Assembly: GCA_963699755.1 (NCBI GenBank)
Contig: CAVOVB010000002.1
Span: forward strand, 32,001-96,000
Length of the DNA: 64,000 bases
Direction of reading: 5' to 3'
Source: an uncultured delta proteobacterium
GTDB lineage: Bacteria; Myxococcota_A; Polyangia; Polyangiales; Houyiibacteriaceae
Below are positions 42,258 through 60,830 of this stretch, piece by piece. The position numbers and the translations under genes were made by a program. Position 1 is the stretch's first letter; the number at the start of each line of letters is the position of its first letter. The notes beneath the pieces were generated by a model. That model did no database searches and had not been told where the DNA came from. It worked only from the letters and a program-made list of their open reading frames with translations.

Positions 42258-42617
42258 CTAAGCCTCGACGCGAGCGCCTGGTGTCACGGAATGCTCAGCC
42301 ACCACGGTATCGGAGTCGTCCACGCAGGACACGAGCTTGGTGAAGCCCACCCGTTCGAGCAGCTCATAGACGATGGTAGGCACGTCGACGAGTCGCAGGT
42401 CCGTGCCGCGGATTCGTAGATGTGAGTAGAGTCGCACGAGCATGGCCAGTCCCGCCTGATCGATCCGGCGAACCCGCTCGAGGGACAACTCCACACACTC
42501 GACGCCCACGAGTTTCGAGAGCGGGAGTCGCTCGGCCAACCTCAAAGCGTCGTGGCCCAAGAGATCACCATCAAGCTCGATCCGCAGTCGAACAATGGAT
42601 TCACCTCGCGTCTTCAT
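42258..42617 (-). CDS. STAS-domain protein (anti-sigma antagonist, SypA-like)
   Basis: IELDGDL, VELSLERVRRIDQAGLAMLV and VYELLERVGF; ATGA coupling to the upstream gene. Confidence 0.8.
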   Translation of the reverse strand: MKTRGESIVRLRIELDGDLLGHDALRLAERLPLSKLVGVECVELSLERVRRIDQAGLAMLVRLYSHLRIRGTDLRLVDVPTIVYELLERVGFTKLVSCVDDSDTVVAEHSVTPGARVEA

Positions 42618-43987
42618 GACCGGCTGACATTAGCATGCATCGTGCCAAGTTCTTGGTGAAGATCAGACGGGGCGAGCTCCGCGTTCCAGATTTGTTCCAT
42701 GGCGGCGGACTGGGCGAACAAGATGAAGAGGAACCAGCTCCAACATTGCGATAGAAAGAACGCGGCGACGCAGAACCCGACCATCGATGGAAACATGGAG
42801 CGACGCACGGCTTGCCCCATTGGGTCGTCTTCCGGCACATCCGCCTTGCGGTGGTGATAGGCGAGACGGACGGTCAGAAAAACGAGCGCCATGAACGGGA
42901 TGAAACCGATGAGCCCGGTCTCCGCGGCGGCCTTGATGAACGAGTTGTGTGCATCGCGCGGCTCCCAGTTGACGGGATTTCGGGCGTAGCCGTGGTAGTT
43001 GTCCGGGAATTGGCCGAAGCCCACCCCGAAGAGCGGATTGTGAGCTGCCATACGAATTCCCGACGCCCACATGTCGAGCCGGCCCTGTGCGGATTCATCG
43101 AGCTCGCCAACCTTCAAGGCTCCGCTGGACCTCTCGTTCACGCCCGCGAGAAACAGCATGGCAACGACAAGTGCCACAAGCGCTGGCGCGAGCGCGAGCC
43201 GAAGGCTGACCCGGCCTCGGTCGTAGAAGGTGAACGCCAGCGCCGCCATGAGCCCGAGCGCTCCGCCGCGAGACACGGTTGCGAATATCCCGCCGACCAG
43301 AACTGCGAGCAGCAAGCCCCAGGAAAGACGCCTGATGCCGCGTGTCGACAGGGCAAGCTCGGCGAACAGCGGCACATAGATCAGCAGGACGAGCGCGAGA
43401 TCGTTTGGGTCTCCCAGCAACCCGGCGAGTCCGGCTCGATTGCCTTCGACCGTCGCTAGGCCCGAGGTCCTCAGGTGAATCGCCAAGAGCGCCAGCCCAA
43501 CCGTGCATAGGGCAAGGCTGAGGTGGAGCTTGACCGCCTGCCGCTTCGTAGTGACCAGATGGACCACGAGCACGTACATGATCAACATCTTGATGAAGAC
43601 ATCGCCGAAGTACGCCCAGCTCGCCGCCGGGTTGGTGCTCATCAGCGATGACAGCATCACTGCTCCGGCAAGTGCGAGCATCCACTTGCCGTGAGGTGCG
43701 GGAGACACCCGTATGTCGCCACGAAACAGCTTCGTGATCAGCCACGAAAGGATCGCAACCAGTCCGACGAGCTTGGCAGGCTGAATTGCGGCGAGCACTG
43801 GAAAGTGATCGGCGGGCCTGAGGACAAGGACCACGATGAACGCAAGTGTCGCATTGAGCGCGCTCGAGAGAGTCCAAACGATCGCGGCGACGCCGAGGAC
43901 GACCCCGAGGGCCGCCATTGGATGCACGGCGGCCGCGGAGGCGCCTACGGCAATTGCAACGCCGCCGAGGAAGGCAGCGCCACGCAC
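42614..43987 (-). CDS. O-antigen ligase/Wzy-like polymerase (SypL-like)
   Basis: Multi-TM protein; GLLGDPNDLAL, TVSRGG, DESAQGRLDMW, NPLFGVGFGQF and AHNSF. Confidence 0.88.
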   Translation of the reverse strand: MRGAAFLGGVAIAVGASAAAVHPMAALGVVLGVAAIVWTLSSALNATLAFIVVLVLRPADHFPVLAAIQPAKLVGLVAILSWLITKLFRGDIRVSPAPHGKWMLALAGAVMLSSLMSTNPAASWAYFGDVFIKMLIMYVLVVHLVTTKRQAVKLHLSLALCTVGLALLAIHLRTSGLATVEGNRAGLAGLLGDPNDLALVLLIYVPLFAELALSTRGIRRLSWGLLLAVLVGGIFATVSRGGALGLMAALAFTFYDRGRVSLRLALAPALVALVVAMLFLAGVNERSSGALKVGELDESAQGRLDMWASGIRMAAHNPLFGVGFGQFPDNYHGYARNPVNWEPRDAHNSFIKAAAETGLIGFIPFMALVFLTVRLAYHHRKADVPEDDPMGQAVRRSMFPSMVGFCVAAFFLSQCWSWFLFILFAQSAAMEQIWNAELAPSDLHQELGTMHANVSRS

Positions 43988-45265
43988 CTATGCTTCTCCT
44001 CGTGGCATTCTGCCGAGGGAGGGTGCGCCGAGTGCTTCGGTGAGCTCTTTCTCTCCGCGCAGCGAGTCATCGAACGCGGCAAAGAAGGCGACCGCAAGCA
44101 GCGCGAGTATCAATCCCGCAAGCAAAGCTCCCGGAAGCACGACCCAGAGCGAGGGATTGAGCGAGCGCGTGGGCATCACGGGCCTCTCGACAGTCCAGAC
44201 TTGATTCCCTTCGGCAAAGATCGCCAGTTCTTCGGTCAACAAACGCTGCCGGAGAAGTGCCTCTTGCGCCTTTGCCTCCTTCAGCTCGATCAGCAGCTCC
44301 TGATGTCGGGCCGCTGTGCTCGTCTCGGTCAGCGCCTGGCTTTCCGGATCGACCAGCTCTGAGCTGCCTGTTTCGTTCGCGACGTCGTCGCTGCTCTTGC
44401 GCTCCCGCCTGATCGCTCGCTGCAGCCATTGCACTCGCTGCCTCGCGGACACGAGCTTTGGGTGGTTCTCCCCGTAGAGCGGCCGAAGCTCGGCCACCTC
44501 GCGGCGAGCGTCCGCCAGATCCTTTCGGTATTGCCTCGATCCTACGGTCCCCTCCGGCTTGCGCTGCCGGAGCTTCGCCTCCGACTGCGCAACCGCTTGT
44601 TCGGCGGTTACGAGACGCACCTCGGCCTCCGCCAAGGCTCTGCGGAGACTGGGCTTCCCTCCACCTCTCCCTTCCTGGGCCTCAGGCAACTGGGCAACCT
44701 GTGGTTCGATTTCCTCCGTGTCGTCCTGAAGCTGCTCGAGCTGATCCTCGAAAAACTCTGCAGAGGCGCGAACCGTCTCTCTTTGCGGGCGGACGATCTG
44801 GTCGGTGAAAGCCTCGATCAGCTCATTGGTCGCCTGGTACGCCCCGATCGGGGTCGCTCCCTGCACCTTGATCAGGACCAGCTCTCCCCCAAGCGCAATG
44901 ACATCCAACCCTCGTTGGAAGTCCTCCACTGCCTGGTTCACCTCTTCGGGGCTGGCCATGTTTCCCAATCGCCCGAGTTTTCGAAGAACCCGCTCCGAGG
45001 TGTCGTGACTTTCGAAGATGCTTTCAACCAGAGGCATGCGTTGCTTCGCCGACCACTGTTCCAACATGTCCTTCAGAAAAGGGTTGACTGTCTGCTGGTC
45101 CTGAATGAGCAGCCGCGCCGTGCATTGATAGCGGTCGGGCATGATCTGCCACACTAGGCCGGCCGCCAAAACCGTGAGGAGGGGGACCAGCAACACCAAG
45201 TCCCAGCGCCGCAAGATCAAGTGAAACAATGCGTCGGGATTGAGCTCTCGCGGGGAGTTTTTCAT
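43988..45265 (-). CDS. Polysaccharide co-polymerase Wzz/Wzc/GumC (SypO-like)
   Basis: N- and C-terminal TM helices; LLIQD...NPFLKD; coiled-coil; VERPVMP; LGAPSLGRMP end. Confidence 0.85.
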   Translation of the reverse strand: MKNSPRELNPDALFHLILRRWDLVLLVPLLTVLAAGLVWQIMPDRYQCTARLLIQDQQTVNPFLKDMLEQWSAKQRMPLVESIFESHDTSERVLRKLGRLGNMASPEEVNQAVEDFQRGLDVIALGGELVLIKVQGATPIGAYQATNELIEAFTDQIVRPQRETVRASAEFFEDQLEQLQDDTEEIEPQVAQLPEAQEGRGGGKPSLRRALAEAEVRLVTAEQAVAQSEAKLRQRKPEGTVGSRQYRKDLADARREVAELRPLYGENHPKLVSARQRVQWLQRAIRRERKSSDDVANETGSSELVDPESQALTETSTAARHQELLIELKEAKAQEALLRQRLLTEELAIFAEGNQVWTVERPVMPTRSLNPSLWVVLPGALLAGLILALLAVAFFAAFDDSLRGEKELTEALGAPSLGRMPRGEA

Positions 45266-45816
45266 GACGACCTACGAAGCTGCCGAGTGATGACTCCGGG
45301 AGGCAATTGGGGCGGCCATGTCCTGAGGCCGGCTTTGATGCGGCGCAGAGTCTCGGCCGGAGACGGACATTCGAGCTCATTCCAGACCCCCCCAAGCATT
45401 GGCAAGCCAAGAACGCGGAGCTGGTCCGCGCAAGCCGCCACCTGTGCCCGGGTCGTGGTCATGCCCCGGGCTATGAGGAGCGCTCCATCGAAATTGGCGC
45501 GGACTGAGGGAGTCAGTGCGGCAGCCCCTTCCCCTTCCAGCAACGCCAGACCGTCGACCCAGACATAGCCGTGCGCGGGCTCTGCCGTCGGCTCAAGCTC
45601 TGCTTTCGACAGCGGCGCCGTGAAGCTCTGCACCATAGAGGTCTCGTTCGTCACCGCGCTCGCGTGCCGTTGAATGCAGCGTGCAAAATGGGTCTTTCCA
45701 TCCCCAGAGTGGGCGGACACCAGGAGAATGCGGTGTGCGTTCGCCGACTGTGCAGCGCCAAACACGCGCGCCACGAGGCTGTGCTCCTCGCGCAGCAATT
45801 TAGCAGAGCTGGTCAC
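45262..45816 (-). CDS. Minimal BY-kinase-like (CapB/CpsD, SypD-like) protein
   Basis: GTG with AGGGAAG RBS; ILLVSAHSGDGKT, FDGALLIARGMTT and PMLGGVWN. Confidence 0.7.
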   Translation of the reverse strand: MTSSAKLLREEHSLVARVFGAAQSANAHRILLVSAHSGDGKTHFARCIQRHASAVTNETSMVQSFTAPLSKAELEPTAEPAHGYVWVDGLALLEGEGAAALTPSVRANFDGALLIARGMTTTRAQVAACADQLRVLGLPMLGGVWNELECPSPAETLRRIKAGLRTWPPQLPPGVITRQLRRSS

Positions 45817-45847
45817 ATCGACTTCCCTAGGCAAGACCAACGTATAA

Positions 45848-45863
45848 CGCAAGATTGGGGCCG
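45848..45863 (-). promoter_or_regulatory. Sigma54 promoter for the BY-kinase/co-polymerase/ligase/STAS operon
   Basis: Minus strand CGGCCCCAATCTTGCG = GG-N10-GC, about 30 nt upstream of GTG 45816. Confidence 0.65.
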
Positions 45864-45917
45864 AGTGTCGATCGGCCCCGCAAAGGGGGACAGTCGCTCC
45901 GCATGGACACATGGTCC

Positions 45918-45963
45918 GTTTCATTCCGAAACAAGGGTGGGCGTCTCCGTGCCGGTTCGGAAC
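45918..45963. promoter_or_regulatory. Paired palindromic activator-binding sites
   Basis: GTTTC-N5-GAAAC (45918) and GTGCC-N5-GGAAC (45949), 31 bp apart, between divergent sigma54 promoters. Confidence 0.6.
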
Positions 45964-45983
45964 AGGCGCCTCAACGAGCCCCA

Positions 45984-45999
45984 TGGCTCGATCCTTGCT
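45984..45999 (+). promoter_or_regulatory. Sigma54 promoter for the GT4 pair
   Basis: TGGCTCGATCCTTGCT = GG-N10-GC. Confidence 0.7.
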
Positions 46000-46039
46000 T
46001 CATTCGCTTCAGACCCCCAGCCTATCGCCGGAGTGTTGC

Positions 46040-47188
46040 TTGAAAGAGTACCCGACGCCGCGCCGTCGTCTACGCGTGGCCCAACTCATGCAGTATTTCG
46101 CCGTTGGCGGCCTCGAGCGAATGGTCGAACGCCTCAGCGTCGCCTCGAATGCTCGGGGCATCGAGAGTCTGGTCATCGCGTACCTTGGGGATGGGCCGAT
46201 TCGAACAGCGCTCGAGCAGCAAGGTATTCGGACGCTCCTGCTCGACAATGGACCAGGTTTTGATCCGAAGCTCGTATGGCGCCTTCGTTCTGTACTCCTT
46301 CGGGAGCAGATCGATGTGCTGCACACGCATCATTTGGGCCCCTTCGTATACGGCGCGCCTGCGGCTGTTCTGGCCGGGTGCCGGCAGGTCCACACCGAGC
46401 ACTCCCACGAGCTCTACGACACGACCCGGAGGCAATTTCTGGGTGCCATGATGTCACCGCTCGCCGAAGTGGTCGCCGTGACACCGGAAATCTCCGAGTA
46501 CCGAAAGCGCTTTCCGGGCCGATGCCTTGTGATCCCCAACGGAGTGCCCATACCTCAGGATTCGCTCGCGATGCGCGAGGCAGGGCGCGCTCTGATAGGC
46601 GCGAATCAAGACAACTTCGTGGTGGGCTGCGCCGCACGACTTTCTGCCGAGAAGAACCATGCGGGCCTCCTCGAAGCATTCGCACAGCTCGTTCGGGACG
46701 AGCCCCGTTCACTTCTCGCCTGCGCCGGCGATGGGCCTCTCGGCGACACACTGCGCGCCCAGGCGGAAGCCGCTGGTCTGAGTCCACGCGTTCGATGGTT
46801 GGGCACGGTGCAAGACATGGCGCCGTTCTACGCGGCGCTCGACGCGTGCGTCCTCAACAGCGATCGAGAGGGTTTGCCCCTCAGCCTGCTCGAAGCGATG
46901 GCGTTTGGGATTCCAGTAGTCGCAACCGACGTGGGGGGCGTCGGAGAGCTCCTCGCCGGGGAGGCCGGATTGCTCGTTCCCCCGCGTGCGCCCGAGACCT
47001 TGGCTGGCGCCCTGGTGTCCCTGGTCGAGCAACCCGAGTTCGCGAAGAAGCTCGGCGAACATGGCAAGGCCCGTATTCATGAGAGCTACGGCATCGACAC
47101 CATGGTCGACCGTTACGTCGCGCTCTATCGTGACGCCGCAAAAAGACCGCTGCTCTGGTCTAACATCGGTTCTGCACCGTGCGCATAA
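46040..47188 (+). CDS. Glycosyltransferase family 4
   Basis: TTG start with GGAG RBS downstream of the sigma54 promoter; GGLERMV, HTEH, IPNGV, ARLSAEKN and EGLPLSLLEAMA. Confidence 0.9.
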   Translation: MKEYPTPRRRLRVAQLMQYFAVGGLERMVERLSVASNARGIESLVIAYLGDGPIRTALEQQGIRTLLLDNGPGFDPKLVWRLRSVLLREQIDVLHTHHLGPFVYGAPAAVLAGCRQVHTEHSHELYDTTRRQFLGAMMSPLAEVVAVTPEISEYRKRFPGRCLVIPNGVPIPQDSLAMREAGRALIGANQDNFVVGCAARLSAEKNHAGLLEAFAQLVRDEPRSLLACAGDGPLGDTLRAQAEAAGLSPRVRWLGTVQDMAPFYAALDACVLNSDREGLPLSLLEAMAFGIPVVATDVGGVGELLAGEAGLLVPPRAPETLAGALVSLVEQPEFAKKLGEHGKARIHESYGIDTMVDRYVALYRDAAKRPLLWSNIGSAPCA

Positions 47189-48267
47189 GCCACATCATCG
47201 CGCCCGGACTCATGGCTGGCGCCGAGAATGTCGTTTTGCAGGGCTGCGCGGCTCTGGTCGCTCGCGGGCACGCGCTGTCTGTGCTGGTGATGGTGGACGA
47301 TCGCTGTCCCTCGTATGGGGAGCGCTTCATCGAGGCGGCCCAGGAAAGGAACGTCCCGGTCCGCGCGCTACGTGTCCGAGGCCGCCTCGATTTAGTCACG
47401 ATCGTGAAGCTTCGCGGCGCGCTCGAGGCGCACGGCACCGAGGTCATGCATGCGCATGGGTACAAGGCGCTCGTCTATGGCTTGCTGGCAAAGACCAGAC
47501 ACATGGCCCTCGTGGTCACCCACCATGGTGAAACGGGACATGATCGATTGGCGCGATTCTATGAGAGTCTCGCGCGAACGCTGTATCGAATGGTCGACCG
47601 CGTGTTCTCCGTTTCGAACGCTACGACCGAGTCACTCGTTGCGGCAGGCGTGCCGCGGGCAAAGCTCACAACGGTGCCCAACCCCGTTTCGCTTTCTGCG
47701 CCGACCTCCGGCACCGAGCGGAAGCGGTCGGAAGGCGCGATGCTTTTCGTGGGCCGGCTCAGCGAAGAAAAGGGTCTCGACGTACTCCTGCGCGCACTTG
47801 CGTCGCCTCGCGCGCCCAAGCAGCTCACGCTCGATGTTGCGGGCGACGGGCCGTGCGCCGGTCAGTGGAAGGCGCTGTCGACTAGCCTGGGGCTCGATGG
47901 CCGAGTTCGCTGGCTGGGCGTGCGTGTTGATATCCCCGAGTTGCTCGCCGAAACCCAAGTTCTGGTCCTTCCCTCGCGCCGCGAGGGGCTCCCCCTGGCG
48001 GTGTTGGAGGCTGCCTCGTGCGAGGTTCCGGTGCTTGCAAGTCGAGTTGGCGGCGTGCCCGAGGCTGTGTGGGAAGGCGAAACCGCTCTACTCGTTACGC
48101 CAGGCGACGTGGACGCCTGGTCGAGAGCGCTCGAAACCTTGCCGATGCAGACCGAGAAGCTCCGTCATGGCGCAAGGCGTCGCGGTGCCGAAGTCCGCGC
48201 CCGCCACGCACCCGAGCGTTGGGCTGAGCTAACGACGCAACATTACGGTGAGGTTGCAAGGCGATGA
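47179..48267 (+). CDS. Glycosyltransferase family 4
   Basis: AGAE, HAHGYKA, FVGRLSEEKG and EGLPLAVLEAA; overlaps the upstream GT. Confidence 0.9.
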   Translation: MRISHIIAPGLMAGAENVVLQGCAALVARGHALSVLVMVDDRCPSYGERFIEAAQERNVPVRALRVRGRLDLVTIVKLRGALEAHGTEVMHAHGYKALVYGLLAKTRHMALVVTHHGETGHDRLARFYESLARTLYRMVDRVFSVSNATTESLVAAGVPRAKLTTVPNPVSLSAPTSGTERKRSEGAMLFVGRLSEEKGLDVLLRALASPRAPKQLTLDVAGDGPCAGQWKALSTSLGLDGRVRWLGVRVDIPELLAETQVLVLPSRREGLPLAVLEAASCEVPVLASRVGGVPEAVWEGETALLVTPGDVDAWSRALETLPMQTEKLRHGARRRGAEVRARHAPERWAELTTQHYGEVARR

Positions 48268-48425
48268 TCGGCGTAAGACTTCGGTCGAGAGTCGCTCGTC
48301 GCGTCACGCTCACCGACGTGTTTCACTTCGGAAGTCGGCGGACGAGAAGTGTTCTAGAAAGGCGCATCGAATGGGGCGCCGAAGACACGCGTGCTTGCAG
48401 CGCCGAGGATCTCGGCATCGAGACG

Positions 48426-48442
48426 TTGGCGCGCAGGTTGCA
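48426..48442 (+). promoter_or_regulatory. Sigma54 promoter for the GT2-sugar transferase fusion
   Basis: TTGGCGCGCAGGTTGCA near-consensus; paired upstream sites at 48320 and 48351. Confidence 0.78.
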
Positions 48443-48490
48443 TGCGCGGCGAGCAGCGCGATTGAATCGAACGCGAGATTAGGTATCGGC

Positions 48491-50308
48491 ATGCCGACGT
48501 GGATGGATATTCTCCTTATTGCTTTCTTATTCTCAGCGCTCCTCGCGCCCTACATCTTCTACCCACTTCTGGTCCGGTACGTGATTCCGCCGAAGACACG
48601 AAGTGACGCTCGGACCGCCCAGGCCTTGCCCCCGGTGAGTGTGCTGATCCCGGCACACAATGAGGCCGCTCGACTAGGCCAGAAGCTACAAAACACGCTG
48701 GCGCTCTCCTACCCGCGCAACCGCATGGAGGTGCTGGTCGCATCAGACGGCTCCGGTGACCAGACCGCCGAGGTCGCGCGCGCGTACGAAAGCTCGGGAG
48801 TGCGCGTGTTGGAGCTACGTGAGCGAGGCGGCAAGCTCGCGGCACTGAAGCATTTGCTCGAGCAGGCGCGAGGCGAGATCGTTTTGTTCACCGACGTCGG
48901 CGCCGACTTGCCACAGAACACGGTCTCCGAGCTCGTCGACGAGCTTGTAGACCCCGACGTGGTCGTGGCCATGCCCCGCTACGTGTCCGTCGGACAGGAT
49001 GGGACTGAAAGCGCCGCCACCGACGGGGTATATTGGAGTCGCGAGACGCGCTTGAAGGAGCTCGAATCGAAGCGCGACATGCTGCTTGGTGCGCACGGCG
49101 CATGCTACATCATGCGCCGGGAATCGATTGTCGAGGTCCCATCCGACACAATTCACGACGATCTGGTTTGGCCCTTGCTTGCCCACGCAGCTGGTGGACG
49201 CATCGTCTATCGTTCCGACCTCGTGGTCTCAGACCTGGCTCCCACTCGCCTTTCCACCATTTTCGAGCGAACGGCGCGCATGGCGCATGGCAATCTTCAG
49301 GTGCTCTGGCGCTACCGTCGGCTGCTGAGCCCGCGCCACGCGCGAATCGCGGTGAGCCTCATCGGCCACAAACTTCTGAAGTCTCTGGGTCCGGTTTGGA
49401 TTTTGGCGCTTGCGTTCTGGGTCAATTTCCGCGCCTTGACCGAATCGGTGTTGGTCCCACTTGCGATCGCCGGTGACCTCTTGCTTCTCGTGCTCGTCGC
49501 ATCTGCGCTCTGGCGCGGCGCAGGCCTTCCACTGCCCCGAAGCCTCGGACTGGGTGTGCATGCGCTGGTGGCACAATCAGGCTGCGCGCTGGGGATCCTT
49601 CGTTTTCCCTTCGGAGCCAACGGAACGCGTTGGCGTCGTCCACCCGAAAACGACGTCCTGGAGTTGCATCGCCCAGCCCTTCCGCCCCCCTCGGTACGAA
49701 TCGCGAAGCGCACCCTGGACGTCGTCGGAAGCTCCGTCGGTCTCTTGCTCGCACTGCCCTTGATTCCGCTCATCGCCCTGGCGATTCGTGTGAGCTCGCC
49801 AGGCCCCATCCTGTACCGACAGGAGCGGGTCGCGAAAGACTATATGGGACGTCCGTACGGCTTTGCGATCTGGAAGTTCCGAACGATGCGAGTCGACGCG
49901 GAGGCCGACGGCGAGGCGGTCTGGGCACAGGAGAGCGATCCGCGCGTGACCGCGGTGGGCGCGTTCCTTCGAAAGCTCCGGCTCGACGAGATACCTCAGC
50001 TCGCCCAGGTGCTCCGGGGCGATATGACCTTGATCGGCCCTCGCCCGGAGCGGCCCTCGATTACCGACACGCTGTCGCTTCAGCTGCCCGGTTATGATGA
50101 TCGACATCCGCCGTGCAAGCCTGGAATCACCGGCTGGGCCCAGGTCCACACCGGCTACGACACCTCGGTCGAGAGCGTGCGCGAAAAATTACTCTACGAC
50201 TTCACGTACAACGCCCACCTCTACGGGCTCCGCAGCTACCTAGCGATGGAGCTGCGCGTCATCCTGCTCACGGTTGCGGTGATCATCAACCGAAGGGGCG
50301 CGCACTGA
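48491..50308 (+). CDS. Fusion of GT2 glycosyltransferase and priming phosphoglycosyl (Bac_transf) transferase
   Basis: N-half VSVLIPAHNE, VASDGSGD, FTDV, DTIHDDL; C-half AKRTLDV, KFRTM, DPRVT..GAFLRKLRLDEIPQ, GPRPERP and KPGITGWAQV; one continuous ORF. Confidence 0.9.
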   Translation: MPTWMDILLIAFLFSALLAPYIFYPLLVRYVIPPKTRSDARTAQALPPVSVLIPAHNEAARLGQKLQNTLALSYPRNRMEVLVASDGSGDQTAEVARAYESSGVRVLELRERGGKLAALKHLLEQARGEIVLFTDVGADLPQNTVSELVDELVDPDVVVAMPRYVSVGQDGTESAATDGVYWSRETRLKELESKRDMLLGAHGACYIMRRESIVEVPSDTIHDDLVWPLLAHAAGGRIVYRSDLVVSDLAPTRLSTIFERTARMAHGNLQVLWRYRRLLSPRHARIAVSLIGHKLLKSLGPVWILALAFWVNFRALTESVLVPLAIAGDLLLLVLVASALWRGAGLPLPRSLGLGVHALVAQSGCALGILRFPFGANGTRWRRPPENDVLELHRPALPPPSVRIAKRTLDVVGSSVGLLLALPLIPLIALAIRVSSPGPILYRQERVAKDYMGRPYGFAIWKFRTMRVDAEADGEAVWAQESDPRVTAVGAFLRKLRLDEIPQLAQVLRGDMTLIGPRPERPSITDTLSLQLPGYDDRHPPCKPGITGWAQVHTGYDTSVESVREKLLYDFTYNAHLYGLRSYLAMELRVILLTVAVIINRRGAH

Positions 50309-50312
50309 CCGT

Positions 50313-51782
50313 TCAGCGAAGCCCGTACTTCTCGAGCTTTCGATAGAGCGTCGTCCGACCGATCCCTAGCGCTTTGGCCGCTTCGGTCAGGCGGCCATTC
50401 TTGTCACGGAGCGCCCGTTTCACGGCCCAGCGCTCTACGGCTTCCAAGGACAGTGGTAGCTCCTCGAGGGATCTTGGCGTGGGTCGTGCCCGTAACTCTT
50501 CCTCCGCGCGCATACTTGGGGCTTCCAGGCCGTTGACGACCGTGTCCCCGTCACCTGGGGCCGAAATGTTCGACTCGGGCAATCTCGATGACCGCGCGTA
50601 GTGATCCCGAACCCGAACCGGCAGGTCTTGAAGGTCGATTTCGTTACCGGTGGCGAGCACGGCAGCGCACTGCAAGATGTTCTCGAGCTCCCGGACGTTT
50701 CCCGGGAAAGGGTAGCGCTCCAGGGCACACATCGCTCGCGCGCTCAAGCGCAAAGGCTGCGCGCCAAGGCTGTTGCAAAGGTCTCCGAGGAGCCTCGGCA
50801 CCAGCAGGGAGAGGTCACCATCGCGCATCCGCAGTGCCGGGAGCTCGATCTCGAAGACGACGATCCGGAAGTAGAGATCTTCGCGAAAACGGTTGGTCTC
50901 AACCATGTCGCGCAGGTTGCGATGTGTCGCGGTGATCAGACGAAAGTCGCTCTCGACCGTGCGAATCCCGCCCAGACGGTCGAAACTACGCTCCTGCAGC
51001 ACCCGCAAGAGTTTGGCTTGCACGGCAAGGGACAGCTCGGCGACCTCGTCGAGAAAAAGCGTGCCACCGTCCGCGCGCTCGAAGCAGCCGGCCCTCGCCT
51101 TATGTGCGCCGGTAAAGGAGCCCCGCTCGTGTCCAAAGAGCTCCGAGTCCTGCAACGACTCGGGGATCGCAGCGCAATTGATCGCAACGAAGGGTCCGCC
51201 CGCGCGTCGACTGTTCTCGTGGATAGCGCGGGCGATGAGCTCCTTGCCGGTTCCGCTATCTCCGCGAATCAAGACGCTGATGTCGCGGCCGGCGATGCGA
51301 TCAACTTGACGAAACACCTCACGCATCCGTGGAGACCGGCCAATCACGCCCGCGTAAGAAACCTCCTCAGCGGGGTCATCGATTCGCGCCGAAGCGCGTT
51401 CGTCTGACGATCGCAGGGCGCGATGGATGGAGGACAACAATCTGCCGCGGTCGACCGGCTTGGTCAGGTAGTCGGAGGCCCCAGCTCGCATGGCGTCTAC
51501 GATCGACTCTGCCGAGGCCTCGGCGGTGAGCACCAGCACTGGAACGCTCGGGTGTTGTCGGAGGGACGCATCGAGCGCCTCCCAAGCGCCGATTCCTGGT
51601 AGGCTGAGATCCAGGCAGACTAAATCGGGCAAGGTGGTGTCGAGGCTGTCCAGGAAGCTCTCCGCATCCCAGCATTGGGCTGTGCGCAGGCCCGCGTCGT
51701 TCAGCCATCCTGTGACGAGCGTGCGCTGATCAGCATCGTGCTCGGCGAAGACGACCAATGGGCCACCTCGAAATGACTCCAT
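50313..51782 (-). CDS. Sigma54-dependent response regulator (REC-AAA+-Fis; NtrC/SypG-like)
   Basis: GAGGAG RBS; DLVCLD and YLTKP receiver; GDSGTGKE, ELFGHERGSFTGA, FLDEV, FREDLYFR; HTH AAKALGIGRTTLYRKL. Confidence 0.95.
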   Translation of the reverse strand: MESFRGGPLVVFAEHDADQRTLVTGWLNDAGLRTAQCWDAESFLDSLDTTLPDLVCLDLSLPGIGAWEALDASLRQHPSVPVLVLTAEASAESIVDAMRAGASDYLTKPVDRGRLLSSIHRALRSSDERASARIDDPAEEVSYAGVIGRSPRMREVFRQVDRIAGRDISVLIRGDSGTGKELIARAIHENSRRAGGPFVAINCAAIPESLQDSELFGHERGSFTGAHKARAGCFERADGGTLFLDEVAELSLAVQAKLLRVLQERSFDRLGGIRTVESDFRLITATHRNLRDMVETNRFREDLYFRIVVFEIELPALRMRDGDLSLLVPRLLGDLCNSLGAQPLRLSARAMCALERYPFPGNVRELENILQCAAVLATGNEIDLQDLPVRVRDHYARSSRLPESNISAPGDGDTVVNGLEAPSMRAEEELRARPTPRSLEELPLSLEAVERWAVKRALRDKNGRLTEAAKALGIGRTTLYRKLEKYGLR

Positions 51783-51961
51783 GGTGGGCACTCCTCGTGG
51801 TTCTGCCTCTTCGAACGTGACGAAAAAGCGGGGGGACGAACACTGTCCGATCAGACGTCCCGAATTGCAACGGCGAACGGCGGAGAAGTTCCGTTCCGGG
51901 ACTCTTCTGCAGAAATGGGCAGGCCCCTTGCACCTTCAGGGCGAATTAATGCGCTATGTTT

Positions 51962-53779
51962 TCACCAGACGGCGCCGCTGGCGTGGAGAGCTCGCGGATA
52001 GCTCGCGATCACCTCGCTCGCGCGAGCGGCGTGATAGGCGATCAATTGAAGCGGCACGGCGAGCACGAGCGGGGACCAAATGGGGTCGATTCGGCTCGCT
52101 TCGATGCACTGCAGGCCATCTCGCTTTGCGACGACTGCGGTGCGCGAGTCACCCAGCAAAATAGGTTCCCCCCCTCGCGCGATGACCTCATGCACGTCGG
52201 ACAAGGTATGATCGAAGGTCTCATCGTGCGGCGCAACGACGACCACCGGCGTGCCTGGCTCGGTCAACGCGCTCGGACGGTGTTTGAGCTCCCCGCCCGC
52301 AAGACCTTCAGCTGGCACATCGGCAAGCGTCTCGACGGTGAGCGCACCTGCTTGGGCGAGCGGATAGTTCTTGCCCCGCCCCAAGTATAGGCCACGGTTC
52401 TTCTCGGCTATCCGACGACCGACCGCGACACACTGATCTTCCTGCTCGAGCGCGCTCTTGATGGCCTGCGGCACGCCGAAAATCGAAGCGGTGATTACGT
52501 CGCTTTTCGCCACCCCATCGCGTCGCTGTCGAATGACGATTGATGCCGCTGCAAGTGCGCAGAGCGTAGCCGTGAAGGCGTTGGTGGATGGGATTCCGAC
52601 CTCATGGCCTGATCTGCAGTCGAGCACCGCGTCGGCCTCTCGGACCAGTGCGCTCGACGTCACGTTGACCAGGGCGACCGTCGGAACGTTTCGCTGTTGC
52701 AAGTACCTGAGCGCTTCGAGTGTGTCCGCGTCTTCTTCCACCTGGGAAACCAGAAGCGCCATGGTCCCCTCCATAAAGACTGCATCGCGGGTCTTGAGCT
52801 CCGAGCTCAGCTCGAGCTCGACCGGGATGCCGGCGATCTGTTCCAGCCAAGCCCGGCCAACATGCGCCGCATGGTGCGAAGCGCCGTTCCCGACCGCGAG
52901 GATTCGGTCCGCTCGCCATAGCGGCCCGCACCAGCAATCCAGCTCGCCGGAATTCATATCGCGCTCGAGCTCGAGCAAGGTGCGGCCTAGGATTACGGGT
53001 AGGTCTTCGATCTCTTCGCGGACGAAGTTGGTGACGACCGTCCCGCTCTGCCGCGTCTCGGCTGAGCTCACGATTCGAGTCCAGCGAGGGACGATCTGCT
53101 CGAGATGCGAGCCGAAGATGCGGACCTGACCCGGGCAGAGCTCGGCAATCTGTCCGTCGTCGAGGGACACGAATTCGCTCGCGACCCGGCCCAGAACGAT
53201 GGGGTCGGAGGCCAGCCAGGAGGCGCCACCCGCCCGCGCCGCGGCGAGTGGATTGCCGCGCCGCGCCGCGTATAGGCAATCGTCGTACTGCGTGCAGATC
53301 ATGCCAAGCGCAAAGGACCCTTGCAGCTTGGGAAGCACAGTCCGCAATGCCGTAATTGGGTGAGCGCGATTGGCGAGCTCTCTGTCCAGCAGCCACACGA
53401 TTACTTCGCTGTCGGTGTCGCTTCGGAACTGGACGCCCTCATGCTCCAGCGCGGCCCGAAGCTCTGCATGGTTTTCGACGACCCCGTTGTGAACGATGGC
53501 GACTCTCGAGCTGGCATGTGGATGGGCGTTGTGTCGAGAAGAGTCGCCATGTGTAGCCGAGCGCAAGTGGCCGAGAACGGTCGTCGAACTGATCGGCTCA
53601 TCTGAAAGCAGCGTCTCCAAGAACGACAGAGGTCCCGTTGCCCTTCGCCTCTGAATCTGGCGGTCGGTCAAGACCCCCAAACCGGCCGAATCACAGCCCC
53701 AGTGCTCCAAATCGGCCAAGCCGTGCATCACACTGGGCACCACGTTGTCATGTGCTGTCGCACAGAAAATCCCACCCAT
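51962..53779 (-). CDS. glmS: Full-length GlmS (glutamine:fructose-6-P amidotransferase) paralog lacking catalytic residues
   Basis: GCDSAG, LGHLRSATHG, NAHPH, VHNGVVEN, SDTDSEVI, LYLGRG, GGELKH and PLQLIAYH; begins MGGIF and ends PRALHASGAVW. Confidence 0.85.
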   Translation of the reverse strand: MGGIFCATAHDNVVPSVMHGLADLEHWGCDSAGLGVLTDRQIQRRRATGPLSFLETLLSDEPISSTTVLGHLRSATHGDSSRHNAHPHASSRVAIVHNGVVENHAELRAALEHEGVQFRSDTDSEVIVWLLDRELANRAHPITALRTVLPKLQGSFALGMICTQYDDCLYAARRGNPLAAARAGGASWLASDPIVLGRVASEFVSLDDGQIAELCPGQVRIFGSHLEQIVPRWTRIVSSAETRQSGTVVTNFVREEIEDLPVILGRTLLELERDMNSGELDCWCGPLWRADRILAVGNGASHHAAHVGRAWLEQIAGIPVELELSSELKTRDAVFMEGTMALLVSQVEEDADTLEALRYLQQRNVPTVALVNVTSSALVREADAVLDCRSGHEVGIPSTNAFTATLCALAAASIVIRQRRDGVAKSDVITASIFGVPQAIKSALEQEDQCVAVGRRIAEKNRGLYLGRGKNYPLAQAGALTVETLADVPAEGLAGGELKHRPSALTEPGTPVVVVAPHDETFDHTLSDVHEVIARGGEPILLGDSRTAVVAKRDGLQCIEASRIDPIWSPLVLAVPLQLIAYHAARASEVIASYPRALHASGAVW

Positions 53780-53833
53780 TTGGATCCTTGAAGTTGGAGA
53801 GTCCGAACCAATCCCGCTTGAACTCTCGAGACC

Positions 53834-53850
53834 TGCGAAAACCGGGCCAG
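53834..53850 (-). promoter_or_regulatory. Sigma54 promoter for the GlmS paralog
   Basis: Minus strand CTGGCCCGGTTTTCGCA = GG-N10-GC; motif copies at 53902 and 53943. Confidence 0.65.
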
Positions 53851-53966
53851 TCGTCCTGGGGACCCTTTGCGTTTCACAAGCGAACGCCGTGATGCGCTAG
53901 TGTACCGAATAGGGGCGGGGCCCATGCCGTCCGGTAGAAGCCGTTTCAATTCGGACGTCGGCGGGA

Positions 53967-55811
53967 CTACCCACCCACGGGTGCCGGCGCCCTCGCCTCC
54001 CCTTCAGCCAGGAGTTGGAACTGCGGATGGGTGGCGCGCAGTTCCTCGAAGGTTCCCTCTCCCGTGACGACGCCATTTTCGAGAAAGTAGATCGTGTCAC
54101 AGTTCTTCACCGAGGTCAGCCGGTGCGCGATGATGATGACCGTCTTGTTCGGTGCGAGTGTGTCCAATGCTTCCATGACTAGCTTTTCAGTGACGTTGTC
54201 CAATGCACTGGTGGCCTCGTCCAAGATGAGGACGTCGGGATCATGGTAGAGCGCTCGCGCGATTCCTACGCGCTGACGCTGGCCGCCGGAGAGACGAACG
54301 CCGCGCTCACCTGCACGACTCTCGTACTTCCGCGGGAATTCATTGGCTACGAATGCATGGAGGTTGGCGAGCTCCGCAACGGCTTCGACCCTGTCTTGGT
54401 CGATCTGGTCCTTTGGGACTCCAAATGCGATGTTTCCAGCAATGCTCGTGTCCGCCAGGAAAATGCTTTGCGGAACGTACCCAATCGAAGCCTGCCAAGC
54501 ACGAACTTGCCTTTCCTCTATTTCCGCTCCGTCCACCAAGAGCGAGCCGTTCGTCGGCCGGAGCAGTCCTAGTATGATGTCGACTGTGGTCGTCTTGCCT
54601 GAGCCGGTGGAGCCGACGAATCCGACCTTCGAGCCGGCCACGATGCGCAGGCTCATGCGCTTGAGCGTCGGGGCGTCGCTACCAGGATACCGATAGACCA
54701 GATCGCAGAACTCGAGCTGTTTGGTCAGCCTGACCCGCGATTCGACTTCTCGGCCGGCATCCGCGCTCTTCGGGCTGCTTCTTGGTTCTCTGCTGAGACG
54801 TAGCGGGCCCTCCAATGACGTGAGCGCTGCCGTGGAGAACTCCATTTCCGCCAAATGCGCATAGATCCTCTGAAGGGCTGGCATCATTTTGTACCCGGCG
54901 AAGGCATAGAGCCCAATCACCGGCAGGCCTGCGGCAAAGCTCCCCTCGGTTGCGAGCACATAGAGAATCACCAGCAGCATGCCGCCGAAGATGATGGCCT
55001 GCATGGCGATGGACGGCACTTGTCCGAGCACTTTCGACCGAATCATCGCATCGCACATGCGACGTGACACCGAGTCGAATCGCTCGGCAAAGAATGCTTC
55101 GGCATGCAGGACCTTGACTTCTTTGATCCCCGCAAAGGCTTCGGACAAGACGTGATAGCGGGCCTGGTTTGACTCGAGCCAGGCCTCACCGGCTTGGAGG
55201 ATCCGAGACCGAAGGAAACGATAGGTGAAAACGTATGCCCCGCCGAGGACGAGGACAGTCGTAGCAGCCAATACGGGATCGACGATGATCAGGAAGGCGA
55301 ACACGAACAAGGCAACGAGTGCGTTGCTCGCGATCATGAGCAGCGGCAAGACGGCGTGGAAGATCGCTTGATTGACCTCGTTGATGGTGGTCGCAGAGAG
55401 CTCCGAAGTGTGCCTCGCGAGGAACCATTCATAGGGCTGCCGGAGATAGGTCTCTACGATCCGGCAACTCCAAGAGTGCATCAGATTTCCCGCGTACCGA
55501 ACCTGCGCCCAAGCGACGAGCGCCTGCAGGCACAGAGCCGAGAGAACCAGAAAGAAGACCAATGCGCCGGTCAGGATCAGCAAATCGTCTGACGACGTAA
55601 TGCCGGTCCACGAGGATAGTGTCACAAGCGCAGAGTTCGACTGAATGAGATCGGGCGAGGAAAGAATTGCGAGGAACGGCATCATGGACGCAACCCCCGT
55701 GGCCTCGAGAAGTGCGAGGATGCCCATCAGGGACAAGACCTTGAGCGCTCCACGCCGTTCAGGGGGCGAAAGCAAGTCGTGAAGCTGGCGGAGAGAGTGA
55801 ATCAAGGACAC
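53967..55811 (-). CDS. ABC exporter, fused permease/ATPase (PglK/MsbA-like, possible lipid-linked glycan flippase)
   Basis: TM N-half (GVASMMPFL, YLRQPYEWF); GSTGSGKTT, LSGGQRQR, LILDEATSALD and IAHRL. Confidence 0.9.
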   Translation of the reverse strand: MSLIHSLRQLHDLLSPPERRGALKVLSLMGILALLEATGVASMMPFLAILSSPDLIQSNSALVTLSSWTGITSSDDLLILTGALVFFLVLSALCLQALVAWAQVRYAGNLMHSWSCRIVETYLRQPYEWFLARHTSELSATTINEVNQAIFHAVLPLLMIASNALVALFVFAFLIIVDPVLAATTVLVLGGAYVFTYRFLRSRILQAGEAWLESNQARYHVLSEAFAGIKEVKVLHAEAFFAERFDSVSRRMCDAMIRSKVLGQVPSIAMQAIIFGGMLLVILYVLATEGSFAAGLPVIGLYAFAGYKMMPALQRIYAHLAEMEFSTAALTSLEGPLRLSREPRSSPKSADAGREVESRVRLTKQLEFCDLVYRYPGSDAPTLKRMSLRIVAGSKVGFVGSTGSGKTTTVDIILGLLRPTNGSLLVDGAEIEERQVRAWQASIGYVPQSIFLADTSIAGNIAFGVPKDQIDQDRVEAVAELANLHAFVANEFPRKYESRAGERGVRLSGGQRQRVGIARALYHDPDVLILDEATSALDNVTEKLVMEALDTLAPNKTVIIIAHRLTSVKNCDTIYFLENGVVTGEGTFEELRATHPQFQLLAEGEARAPAPVGG

Positions 55812-55925
55812 GCAGTGTAGCCAACTGGAGCGCCCCCCCCAAGGTCTCGACCCGCCAGACAGCTCCCTCGGAAAGAAACCAGCGCGTCTCTGGCCTCCGA
55901 CGCTCGTAAACTGTACTTCACAGCT

Positions 55926-57554
55926 TCATTCCACCGTCAGCTGCGAGACCGGGTACCAGCCGTCCGCTCGACGCCCTGCGATGGCAAGCAACAGCGGCGG
56001 CAGTGCCTTGGTATCAGGCGCCGTGCCGTCGCGATCCAGGAGCGCGAGATCGATCTGATAGGTGCCCTTCGGTAGGTCCGAGGGAATGGCGATGGTATCG
56101 CGTACTTTCCAGCTACCAGGCAACCAGGTGCGAGTGTCCTGTGTGCTGCCGAGGATGATTTCCTTGGTCGGCCCGCGCAGACGGTAGGTCAGGACCCTCG
56201 GTAGATAGTGGGGTGCAACGCCAACATTGCGCCAGTCCGTCTTGAAGGTGGTGCGGCTGCCCACCGGGACGGTGCCCTGATGGTTGAAACGATCGACGAC
56301 AAACCGGTAGCCGTTCCGTTTGAGTAACTCGTCGATGGGGGCGACGTAGATCTCAGGCACCGGCTTAGATTTGGCGTTGAGCACGGAGGCGTGCTGCCTC
56401 AGGGCCCATTGAAACGACTTGTGGACCTCGCCGTTTGGCTTAAGGGCGGTCCAGCCGAGCTCGTGCCATCGCTCGAGCGTGCCGCAGATTTCGAGCTGGA
56501 CGGGCGCCTTCTTCCAGACATCGGTGAAGCCGGCGTCGGCAGCGGTGGCCGCGGCGATCATCGACGGATAGAGCTTGCCTTGGTGACTCCAGGAACCGCC
56601 CCACATTCCCCAGTCGCCCCAGCAGTCGGCGCGCCAGCCAGCGCCGCCCTGCGTGGCATGGAGCATGAGCCCCACGTTCTCTCGATCGAGCCCAAGCATG
56701 ACGACAGGAGTGTTGGAAAAGGCACGCAGGTGATGATCGATGAGCCGGGTTAGCGCCGTCACGATCTGCTGACGCTCCTTGTGGTTACCGGGCTTGTAAA
56801 CGTCGACGAGGCTCTCGGCGTTTGACAAACAAGCAGTGTTCCACTCTCCCCAGCAGCCAACCGTGCCGATATCGACATGGTCGACTGCGGGGTGCCCGTC
56901 GTAGCGGTCTCCAAGAGCGCTGATTAAACGGGCATGCTCGCGCTGAAACGTGGGGTCCCGATAGTCCGGCCAAAAGACGCGGCCGCCGTCGCCCTGACGC
57001 CACTGACCGGCGACGTCGTATGGAGCGCTGGTCAGCCAATCTGGAATTCCGGACTGCCCCTCGGCAACCGTCATCACGCGGAAGGACAGGGTCATCCCCA
57101 TCACGTTGGCGGATTGGATGGCCCGGTCGATCATCTCGAAGTCGATCTGTCCCCGCTTCGGCTCGAGATCTCGCCAGTGCCAGCGGAAATAGGCCGTGCC
57201 GGATTTGGGGTAGTTCTCGGGCCACTGTTTCTTCACGCGCGCTGCGCATTCCTTTGCGGAATAGGTGATCGGCGGCAGGTTGCACCACCAGCCGAAGTGG
57301 AAGCTGGCGAAGCCCATGCCCGGGTTGGTTAGGACGTCGTCGATGCGCGTGGGCTTGACGGTGATGGTGCCTGGCTCGGGAACGTCTGCTCTTGCCGGGG
57401 CGGGCTCCTCTGAGATGCCCTCGATCGCCTCCCGCGCTTGATCGCCATCGGTGTACGCCCGACAAGCATTGTAGGCGACCCCGGAAGCCACGGTGCCGAC
57501 GACGAGGAAGGCGAAAACGAAACGCGAAAAACCCCTGGAAGCTGCTCGAATCAA
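55926..57554 (-). CDS. Secreted/anchored glycoside hydrolase-like protein (GH42-like TIM barrel plus DUF4832-like C-terminus); start uncertain
   Basis: NPGMG, YFRWHWRDLEP..G.IDF, RYDGHP..VDIGTVGCWGEW, GYRFV and WRNVGVAP. Confidence 0.75.
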   Translation of the reverse strand: MIRAASRGFSRFVFAFLVVGTVASGVAYNACRAYTDGDQAREAIEGISEEPAPARADVPEPGTITVKPTRIDDVLTNPGMGFASFHFGWWCNLPPITYSAKECAARVKKQWPENYPKSGTAYFRWHWRDLEPKRGQIDFEMIDRAIQSANVMGMTLSFRVMTVAEGQSGIPDWLTSAPYDVAGQWRQGDGGRVFWPDYRDPTFQREHARLISALGDRYDGHPAVDHVDIGTVGCWGEWNTACLSNAESLVDVYKPGNHKERQQIVTALTRLIDHHLRAFSNTPVVMLGLDRENVGLMLHATQGGAGWRADCWGDWGMWGGSWSHQGKLYPSMIAAATAADAGFTDVWKKAPVQLEICGTLERWHELGWTALKPNGEVHKSFQWALRQHASVLNAKSKPVPEIYVAPIDELLKRNGYRFVVDRFNHQGTVPVGSRTTFKTDWRNVGVAPHYLPRVLTYRLRGPTKEIILGSTQDTRTWLPGSWKVRDTIAIPSDLPKGTYQIDLALLDRDGTAPDTKALPPLLLAIAGRRADGWYPVSQLTVE

Positions 57555-57969
57555 TTCATCGACCTCGTACCGAGCCTAGCATCGTGAACATTGTGGCGCA
57601 GAACGAGCCGCCGCATGCCCGGAGCAGGCTCTTCGTTCGAATCGGCACTGGCTTCTAAGCCGAGCTCGGCCTTGATGGGAGCTCGGAGCGCTGGGCCGGA
57701 GAATCAGATCAAGCAGCTGTGGTAGCGAACGTCCCTCGAGATCCGCCGCGAAATTCCATAGTTTGGACTCTCAGCGCCTCGAGTCTGGACTCCGACGAGA
57801 TGGGCCCTCCGCCGCGGCGGCTCGTTCGTTCGGCAAATCGTGCTGCTCGGCCCTCTTGCGACGACTTTCTCGATTTGAGACAGGCCGTTCGGGTCTACTC
57901 TCCGACAGCGAAGGACATCGGGACCCTTGCCGACCATCCGAGAAACTTCTAGATCCAACAAGGACCCCC

Positions 57970-59871: not shown

Positions 59872-59873
59872 CG

Positions 59874-60830
59874 ATGTCTATGCTCGCTGAACTATGCGTC
59901 ATCGAGAGCGGAGCCGCCGATCCGCACACCCTCGACGAGTACGAATCAGAGACGCCGCGCTGGTGCAAGGGATGCGGAGATCATGGAGTGCTCGCGGCGC
60001 TTCAGCGCGTGCTCCGCAAGAACAACCTCGATCCAGAGGACGTGGTCTCCGTTTCCGGCATCGGATGTTCGAGCCGCCTGCCCCACTACCTCAACACCTA
60101 CGGTTTTCACGGCATCCACGGCCGTGCTCTCCCGATCTCCACGGGCGTGCGCCTCGCCCGTCCCGAGCTGCCGGTCGTCGTGATCATGGGCGATGGGGAC
60201 TGCTTCAGCATCGGCGGCAACCATTGGCTGCACGCGATCCGCTACAACATCAACGCAGTCGTGCTGGTGCTCGACAACGAGGTTTACGCGCTCACCAAGA
60301 TGCAGGTATCGCCCACCACGCCGGACGGGTGGAAAACCAACACCACCCCGCATGGCACCTACCTTCAGCCCATGAACCCTCTCAGTGTGGTGATGGGGAT
60401 GACCAATGTCTCATTCCTCGCCCAGACCGCGACCTGGCTGCCCGCGCACCTCGACGAGACGATCGAAAAGGCCTGGGAGCACCATGGCCTTTCGTTCGTC
60501 CGGATCCTGCAGCGTTGCCCGGTGTTCATGCCCAAAGCCTTCGGCGATGGCGGGTTGAACTTCCCGGTCGTGTTTCTCGAGCACGAAGACGGCATCCCGG
60601 TCCACCCCTTGCTACTCAAGCGCGGCGCCACTCGAGCGCACAATCATCGCGACATCAACGAAGCTCAGCGCGTTGCGGTGTCTGTCGACCCCGCTCCCAT
60701 GGGCCTGCTGTACCGCAATCCCGATGTTCCAACCTACGAGGAGATTCGATGGAACCGCCAGGAACGGCCAGATCATCGGACCTTCGTCGAGCGGTTGGAT
60801 GCCCTGATGGACCGTTATACCGTTAGCTGA
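59874..60830 (+). CDS. korB: 2-oxoacid:ferredoxin oxidoreductase beta subunit
   Basis: WCKGCGD, SGIGCSSR, HGRALP, TPP motif GDGD...DN, SPTT and QRCP. Confidence 0.92.
   Translation: MSMLAELCVIESGAADPHTLDEYESETPRWCKGCGDHGVLAALQRVLRKNNLDPEDVVSVSGIGCSSRLPHYLNTYGFHGIHGRALPISTGVRLARPELPVVVIMGDGDCFSIGGNHWLHAIRYNINAVVLVLDNEVYALTKMQVSPTTPDGWKTNTTPHGTYLQPMNPLSVVMGMTNVSFLAQTATWLPAHLDETIEKAWEHHGLSFVRILQRCPVFMPKAFGDGGLNFPVVFLEHEDGIPVHPLLLKRGATRAHNHRDINEAQRVAVSVDPAPMGLLYRNPDVPTYEEIRWNRQERPDHRTFVERLDALMDRYTVS

Follow-up and report, generated by a model that had tools for sequence, protein, structure and literature searches.

A GlmS-fold pseudoenzyme, probably kept by purifying selection, next to a sigma54 activator in uncultured Polyangiales-type bacteria

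The window, by which we mean the whole 64,000-nucleotide stretch of DNA analysed here, encodes on its minus strand a 605-residue paralog of GlmS (51962..53779). The ORF is uninterrupted, starts with MGGIF, contains an internal SQVEED, and ends with PRALHASGAVW. The protein comprises a GATase domain (residues ~1-235), a linker, two SIS domains, and a neutral C-terminal tail (591-605); Pfam matches it with GATase_6 and two SIS stretches. Upstream, on the same strand and in the same cluster, lie a PglK-like ABC exporter and a DUF4832/GH42-like glycosidase (53967..57554). The latter (55926-57554) is located upstream of the exporter, and in locus L052 it is just a 264-codon match. On the other side of the paralog, also on the minus strand, is an NtrC-type sigma54 activator (50313..51782) with REC, AAA, and HTH domains and a GSFTGA motif, the receiver of which has an eroded acidic pair (EH). 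It is followed on the plus strand by a GT2 fused to a WcaJ-type priming sugar transferase (48494..50308), preceded by a sigma54 site at 48427; this fusion is found in 13 of the 55 genomes of the genus. Further polysaccharide genes (STAS, O-antigen ligase-like, Wzz-like, and two GT4) occupy 42261..48264, with sigma54-like sites among them at 45984 (plus strand) and 42647 (minus strand). A short ORF adjoining the Wzz-like gene (45262-45984) has a Walker-A-like motif (SAHSGDGKT) and no family match, and is probably a reduced tyrosine-kinase/ATPase partner.

We numbered residues and identified substitutions using an alignment of the paralog with E. coli GlmS. The catalytic residues of GlmS are Cys1, Glu488, His504, and Lys603 (PMC9272926, excerpt). 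At these positions the paralog has Gly, Thr, His, and Ala: the N-terminal cysteine of active GlmS is absent, and the isomerase set Glu488/His504/Lys603 is incomplete, with only H504 retained. The substitutions are C1G, R26W, W74S, T302A, S349V, G350E, T352D, K485T, E488T, and K603A, of which those of E488 and K485 add to the lesions reported by the first-pass annotation. The Gly codon that replaces Cys1 is at 53774..53776 (minus strand), and the former phosphate-binding loop SQVEED (residues 345-350; 52730..52747, minus strand), which reads SQSGET in active GlmS, is now acidic. The initial description of a full-length ORF with a GATase and two SIS domains that has lost both active sites is thus borne out by the alignment, by Pfam, and by the TIGR01135 glmS profile. 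The score of the paralog with this profile (457 bits) passes the cut-off (418), so that automatic annotation would name it as a working enzyme. An intact housekeeping GlmS, 34% identical to the paralog, is encoded in the same genome and on the same contig (G000:C2:763110-764942). An Rfam scan of 44000-60000 with E-values up to 1 gave no match, either to the glmS ribozyme or to another known RNA. The contamination of the assembly is 9%. The lesion is not an assembly error, because orthologs share both it and the gene order, and because contigs from an independent sequencing run match the region 53677-53891, in which the Gly2 codon lies, without a single difference.

The protein search returned 40 clade proteins (query included) with 44-100% identity, followed by ordinary GlmS at ≤41%; it covers only ORFs of 332-1059 residues, and broken copies are therefore under-sampled. 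Four of these proteins are intact (P0012, P0020, P0021, and P0033), all with Cys1 and Lys603; the called start of P0020 is too short, and its genomic copy starts with MCGIF. We classed the other 36 as dead on the basis of their residues, including four without an N-terminus. A phylogenetic tree, from which the fragments P0039 and P0040 were left out, recovered this residue-defined class independently: 34 dead proteins and a metagenome copy are monophyletic (SH-aLRT 99.9) and branch above the intact basal members. The sister lineage of the clade consists of the intact second GlmS copies of genomes G061, G101, and G102, which are distant from the housekeeping genes. Cys1 is kept in none of the 32 dead proteins that have an N-terminus, E488 in four of 36, and K485 in three of 36, whereas E488 and K485 are each present in 82 of 82 active references. 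When orthologs were checked for Cys1 and Lys603, four basal clade members had kept them. These mark the ancestral active state, not a recent decay of the window copy. Gly1 and Ala488 are found in each of the four dead proteins that branch off first, three of which retain most other site residues. The clade thus presents a graded series, from intact, through copies in which mainly Cys1 and Glu488 are changed, to fully eroded. Extant sequences therefore suggest that both active sites died early and that erosion came later. As several clade members are named as the GlmS enzyme in databases, in addition to the glmS cut-off being passed, the clade is misannotated as active GlmS.

Taxonomically, the clade is confined to a single genus of uncultured Polyangiales-type bacteria. 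Among 88 genomes of the family, a search at E≤1e-105 matched 12, i.e., nine of the 55 in the genus plus G061, G101, and G102. The nine genus genomes include seven dead and two intact copies, and all carry an intact housekeeping GlmS as well. The source names of the clade proteins are Polyangiales, Myxococcota, or Deltaproteobacteria MAGs. A scan of metagenomes with a single protein gave one locus, and a scan of a genome collection gave eight clade loci, the remaining matches being at the level of ordinary GlmS (35-43% identity). Among the best 150 representatives at 50% identity, two are clade members and 143 of the other 148 retain all four catalytic residues. The five that do not are four truncated sequences and one clade fragment, and no other dead GlmS lineage was found in this set. 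The protein atlas returned only GlmS clusters.

The dead copies evolve under constraint. The NG86 dN/dS among eight dead genes (28 pairs, dS 0.2-1.6) ranges from 0.19 to 0.40, and the 95% intervals of five dead pairs all lie inside 0.14-0.41. Closely related dead pairs range from 0.21 to 0.26, including two that split after the loss, with values of 0.21 (0.16-0.27) and 0.24 (0.16-0.34). The omega of the codon model is 0.17 for the dead paralog, compared with 0.10 for the activator, 0.087 for wcaJ, 0.136 for GT4, and 0.035 for the housekeeping GlmS. In neutral simulations, which include only substitutions and assume an equilibrium GC of 75%, dN/dS was around 1.0 (minimum 0.75) when stops were forbidden; when they were allowed, 0 of 200 runs were stop-free at a branch length of 0.37 and 13 of 200 at 0.1. 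The tail (591-605) provides an internal neutral control, its dN approaching or exceeding dS in the majority of pairs. A stop-tolerant genome search revealed no stops in the nine genus copies. A DNA search of the 55 genomes gave no further remnant, except for matches of 75-126 nt to one stretch that the housekeeping glmS also matches. As judged from these data, constraint on the dead paralog is relaxed but real, and a dN/dS near 1, as expected from recent decay, was not observed. The proposal of the first-pass annotation that the protein is kept for a non-catalytic role is supported, since the orthologs share the loss, are full-length, and have these low dN/dS values.

Residue roles were mapped from human GFAT-1 (PMC7000685, excerpt). 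The dead paralog is predicted to retain the GlmS fold: the model has a pLDDT of 83.5, with low confidence in the Q-loop, the linker, the 391-397 loop, and the tail, and its best full-length TM score is 0.79, to 1jxa. The mean retention in dead members is 0.24 for the catalytic set, 0.20 for the coupling residues, 0.22 for the C-loop, and 0.36 for the sugar-phosphate site, compared with 0.71 for the other 101 invariant positions. The glutamine pocket (R73, T76, H77, H86, G99, and D123, the last of which we take to be a pocket residue) is better retained: the window copy has all six residues, and 28 of 34 dead members have five or six. Its retention of 0.84 is, however, no higher than the 0.88 of the other invariant polar residues of the glutaminase domain, and is thus neutral as to ligand binding. 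In 20 of 21 dead pairs, compared with three of 21 housekeeping pairs, the glutaminase half is better conserved than the isomerase half, even if the pairs are non-independent and the lost constraint on the isomerase active site would alone push in the same direction. The clade also has a motif of its own, WCGPLWRADR (residues 283-292; 52904..52933, minus strand), in a region that is variable in ordinary GlmS. Its W, C, G, P, L, A, and R are present in 100% of the dead members, and WCGPL is partly present in the intact ones. We regard it as a candidate interaction surface.

The regulatory elements around the gene are conserved. As the first-pass annotation had it, the paralog has a sigma54 promoter of its own and lies upstream of a sigma54 activator on the same strand. 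The promoter-like (-24/-12) site TGGCCCGGTTTTCGCA (53834..53849, minus strand) is a conserved feature: 10 of 10 orthologous loci have it, and it precedes the paralog start by 74-102 nt. An RBS-like AAGGA (53785..53789, minus strand) has a purine-rich counterpart at the same place in the orthologs. Further upstream (53870..53954) are conserved elements, putative activator binding sites, that include the enhancer-like motif GTTTCAATTCGG (53943-53954). A second copy of this motif precedes the activator (51860..51871, minus strand), where it overlaps a -35-like hexamer (TTGCAA) and may serve autoregulation, and a third is found on the wcaJ side at 48320. The motif thus recurs ~100 bp upstream of the sigma54 sites of the paralog and of wcaJ, and also before the activator. 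It was defined after the alignments had been seen and its support comes from position and conservation; the three matches in the window are not by themselves above chance (20 of 100 shuffles reach three). From the shared motif and the sigma54 sites, we infer that the paralog belongs to the regulon of the activator. The gap of ~180 bp between the two genes contains the conserved element TTGCAATTCGG...ATCG, by which conservation the activator probably has its own promoter; a sigma70 scan of 50200-56000 found no sites. One RNA library (word share 0.19) has three low-depth contigs over the paralog, which, as DNA carry-over is possible, do not count as evidence that it is transcribed.

In all eight dead loci and in the intact G008, the gene immediately downstream of the paralog is that of the same NtrC-type activator, so the adjacency, on this genomic evidence, predates the catalytic loss. 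The intact copy of G076 has no such neighbour. Ten of the 88 genomes carry the activator: eight with the adjoining paralog, G072, and G014. We did not count G072 as an activator without paralog, as we take this to be an assembly gap: 25 nt separate the matched activator start from the end of the contig, and the glycosidase upstream is truncated as well. G014 kept the polysaccharide genes and has no paralog, its only activator being diverged and located elsewhere, with no cluster beside it. This orphan (L084, 10899-12296), far from the polysaccharide cluster, has GAFPGA for GAFTGA and is possibly inactive. G090 and G020 lack both paralog and activator and kept the glycosidase, exporter, wcaJ, Wzz, and ligase genes. 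Their sequences closely resemble those of the window (glycosidase 79-81%, GT4 82% identity), and a pattern search found no sigma54 site before their wcaJ. The trees of paralog and activator have the same topology, and that of the housekeeping GlmS differs. Co-occurrence and co-inheritance of the two genes are thus observed, with few independent events.

A hybrid kinase is encoded upstream in G008, G017, G021, and G076, and the activator receiver is intact in the first three. No kinase ortholog was found in the window genome (G000), G001, G023, G087, G100, or locus L052, where the receiver is eroded. Hence, six of the eight dead loci combine a lost kinase with an eroded receiver. The acidic pair of the eroded receivers (window 50313-51782; L052 9993-11468; L037, L038, L047, and L048) reads EH, EQ, DG, or GD; other lesions are a Lys to Thr change in G001 and a change of the phospho-acceptor Asp to Glu in L052. 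Such activators may be phosphorylation-independent. Kinase genes are located at L039 7511-9184, L041 11107-12696, and L046 5685-9082. Those of G008 and G021 are 40% identical and have no recognised sensor domain. The kinase of G076 carries HNOBA and lies behind an H-NOX gene, which suggests that the ancestral module responded to nitric oxide. In G101, G102, and G061 (L049, L050, and L051), the intact second GlmS is found beside hybrid kinase, PHP, and TPR genes and a receiver fused to a PIG-L deacetylase domain, with a related sigma54 activator nearby in G101 and G102. G008 has a third GlmS copy (L042, G008:C3, 1646-11906) beside pel-like genes (PelG, DUF3492 GT4, GH114) and an epimerase. By its genomic context, the paralog is a descendant of the accessory GlmS of a module made of hybrid kinase, glmS, and sigma54 activator, together with polysaccharide genes.

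In summary, we regard the paralog as a GlmS-fold pseudoenzyme under purifying selection, i.e., a selected non-enzyme, with a probability of roughly 0.88. It could instead be a decaying relic, a useless expressed protein whose dN/dS is below 1 merely because misfolding, or a polar effect on the activator, is selected against. Its evolution is indeed faster than that of its neighbours (0.17 versus 0.09-0.14), the erosion of its active sites is progressive and heterogeneous, and broken copies were under-sampled. The uninterrupted genus copies, the failure of neutral runs to stay stop-free, the promoter conserved in all loci, a dS that reaches 1.6, and the low dN/dS of close dead pairs make this quite improbable. 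Even less probable is that the protein is still an enzyme with a changed chemistry, such as an isomerase, a deaminase, or another Ntn reaction. The predicted fold is intact and the glutamine pocket largely retained, yet G, S, A, or D stands at position 1 and any of seven residues at position 488, and dead members have no new invariant catalytic-type residue at either active site. Profiles of SIS-type GlcN6P deaminases (NagB-II/GlmD) score far below their cut-offs (80.7 versus 430; 41.9 versus 580), and we consider new chemistry extremely improbable. A sugar-phosphate (Fru6P/GlcN6P) sensor, akin to SIS-domain regulators such as RpiR/MurR and GKRP, had also been suggested, and the window copy does retain S303, S347, Q348, S401, and H504, with S303 being Ser in 34 of 36 dead members. 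However, at most four of the six sugar-site residues survive in any of the 36, and their mean retention (0.36) is below that of other invariant polar isomerase residues (0.54). T352 is Asp in 24 of 36, acidic residues of the phosphate loop average 2.25 versus 1.0 in active enzymes, and the poorly retained C-loop lid has dN near dS. The suggestion thus finds no support, and we hold it to be very improbable.

Two other roles would explain selection without the activator. In one, mixed dimers or hexamers with the housekeeping GlmS lower or raise the flux of GlcN6P once the polysaccharide cluster has been switched on. The partner is present and intact in all nine genus genomes with the paralog, and the invariant isomerase residues S328, E329, R333, and E501 are retained at ≥0.9. 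R331, Y332, and N532, presumably interface residues, point the other way: the first two are already changed in intact basal members, and the third is Asp in 92% of the dead ones. The paralog tree also tracks the activator and not the housekeeping gene. Bacterial GlmS does have an equilibrium of active dimer and inactive hexamer (PMC10087520, excerpt), and dead paralogs form heteromers in other enzymes (PMC3663545, excerpt), but the dimer forms through the isomerase half (PMC7000685, excerpt), and this is the half that evolves faster. Inhibition of GlmS by hetero-oligomerisation, another initial suggestion, is therefore possible in principle but weakened, and we rate such a partnership as unlikely. 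Alternatively, the paralog might be a structural or scaffold part of the polysaccharide pathway, or bind another partner or ligand, independently of the activator. Its apparent co-regulation with wcaJ and the selection over both domains fit this role, whereas the polysaccharide genes persist without it in G090, G020, and G014. We find it no likelier than the previous one.

Modulation of the activator, the remaining suggestion of the first-pass annotation, seems to fit the genomic evidence best. That the pseudoenzyme works as a feedback partner of the activator is our preferred reading, held tentatively and at somewhat less than even odds. An accessory enzyme would once have raised the supply of GlcN6P for the polysaccharide. 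The dead gene would now be transcribed from its sigma54 promoter by way of the activator. Its folded product would bind the activator, or the signalling module of the latter, and so tune the expression of the cluster. Binding could occur mainly through the glutaminase domain, the glutamine/glutamate pocket of which may still report nitrogen status. The loss of the kinase and the erosion of the receiver leave room for such an input. The support for this link, all of it genomic, comes from the co-loss in G090 and G020, the adjacency in 8/8 dead loci, and the matching trees. Against it, the adjacency is older than the catalytic loss. The co-loss amounts to at most two events, would also be expected from one deletion of adjacent genes, and could alternatively reflect the dependence of the paralog on the activator for its own transcription. 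A general replacement of the kinase by the dead protein is an idea that we rejected, since in G017 and G021 a dead copy coexists with the kinase and an intact receiver. The most specific version, a glutamine/glutamate-responsive feedback regulator that binds the activator by its glutaminase domain, gates the polysaccharide by nitrogen status, and is the main input where the kinase was lost, is doubtful. No GlmS-fold protein is known to us to bind a sigma54 activator, nor did the literature searched contain such a case.

The paralog resembles GlmS (TIGR01135; E. coli structures PDB 1jxa, 2j6h, and 4amv) in full-length homology, domain order, and predicted fold. It differs by lacking three of the four catalytic residues (Cys1, Glu488, and Lys603, with His504 kept), Lys485, the coupling residues Y25/R26/Y28/W74, and the C-loop. 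Accessory GlmS copies of the NodM type occur in polysaccharide or Nod-factor clusters in addition to the housekeeping copy. The paralog is similarly a second copy beside glycan genes with the housekeeping copy elsewhere, and the intact copies of G008, G076, and G061/G101/G102 resemble this type, which is active, whereas the clade is dead yet conserved. The nearest system in logic is DhaQ, a dead paralog, derived from DhaK, that acts on a transcription factor. DhaQ is a coactivator (PMC7911632, excerpt), and the dead subunit of trypanosomatid DHS (PMC3663545, excerpt) and plant PDX1.2 (PMC6829848, excerpt) are also catalytically dead paralogs kept as regulators. These proteins have other folds and partners, and the partner proposed here comes from genomics alone. 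The proposed feedback of a regulon product on its own activator is the logic of PspF and HrpR/S. These sigma54 activators are controlled by protein binding in trans (PMC7175178, excerpt), whereas the activator of our locus keeps a receiver domain and its proposed partner is the relic of an enzyme. In the literature searched, of which most subscription papers are not part, no conserved inactive bacterial GlmS paralog is described, and a conserved pseudoenzyme of the GlmS family is apparently new.

GlmS is a well-studied essential enzyme and a drug target, and the graded series of the clade allows a direct test, on few genes, of how a pseudoenzyme arises. If the paralog controls the activator, this would be a new way of regulating sigma54 transcription. 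If it is also the main input where the kinase was lost, an enzyme relic would have taken over from a two-component system.
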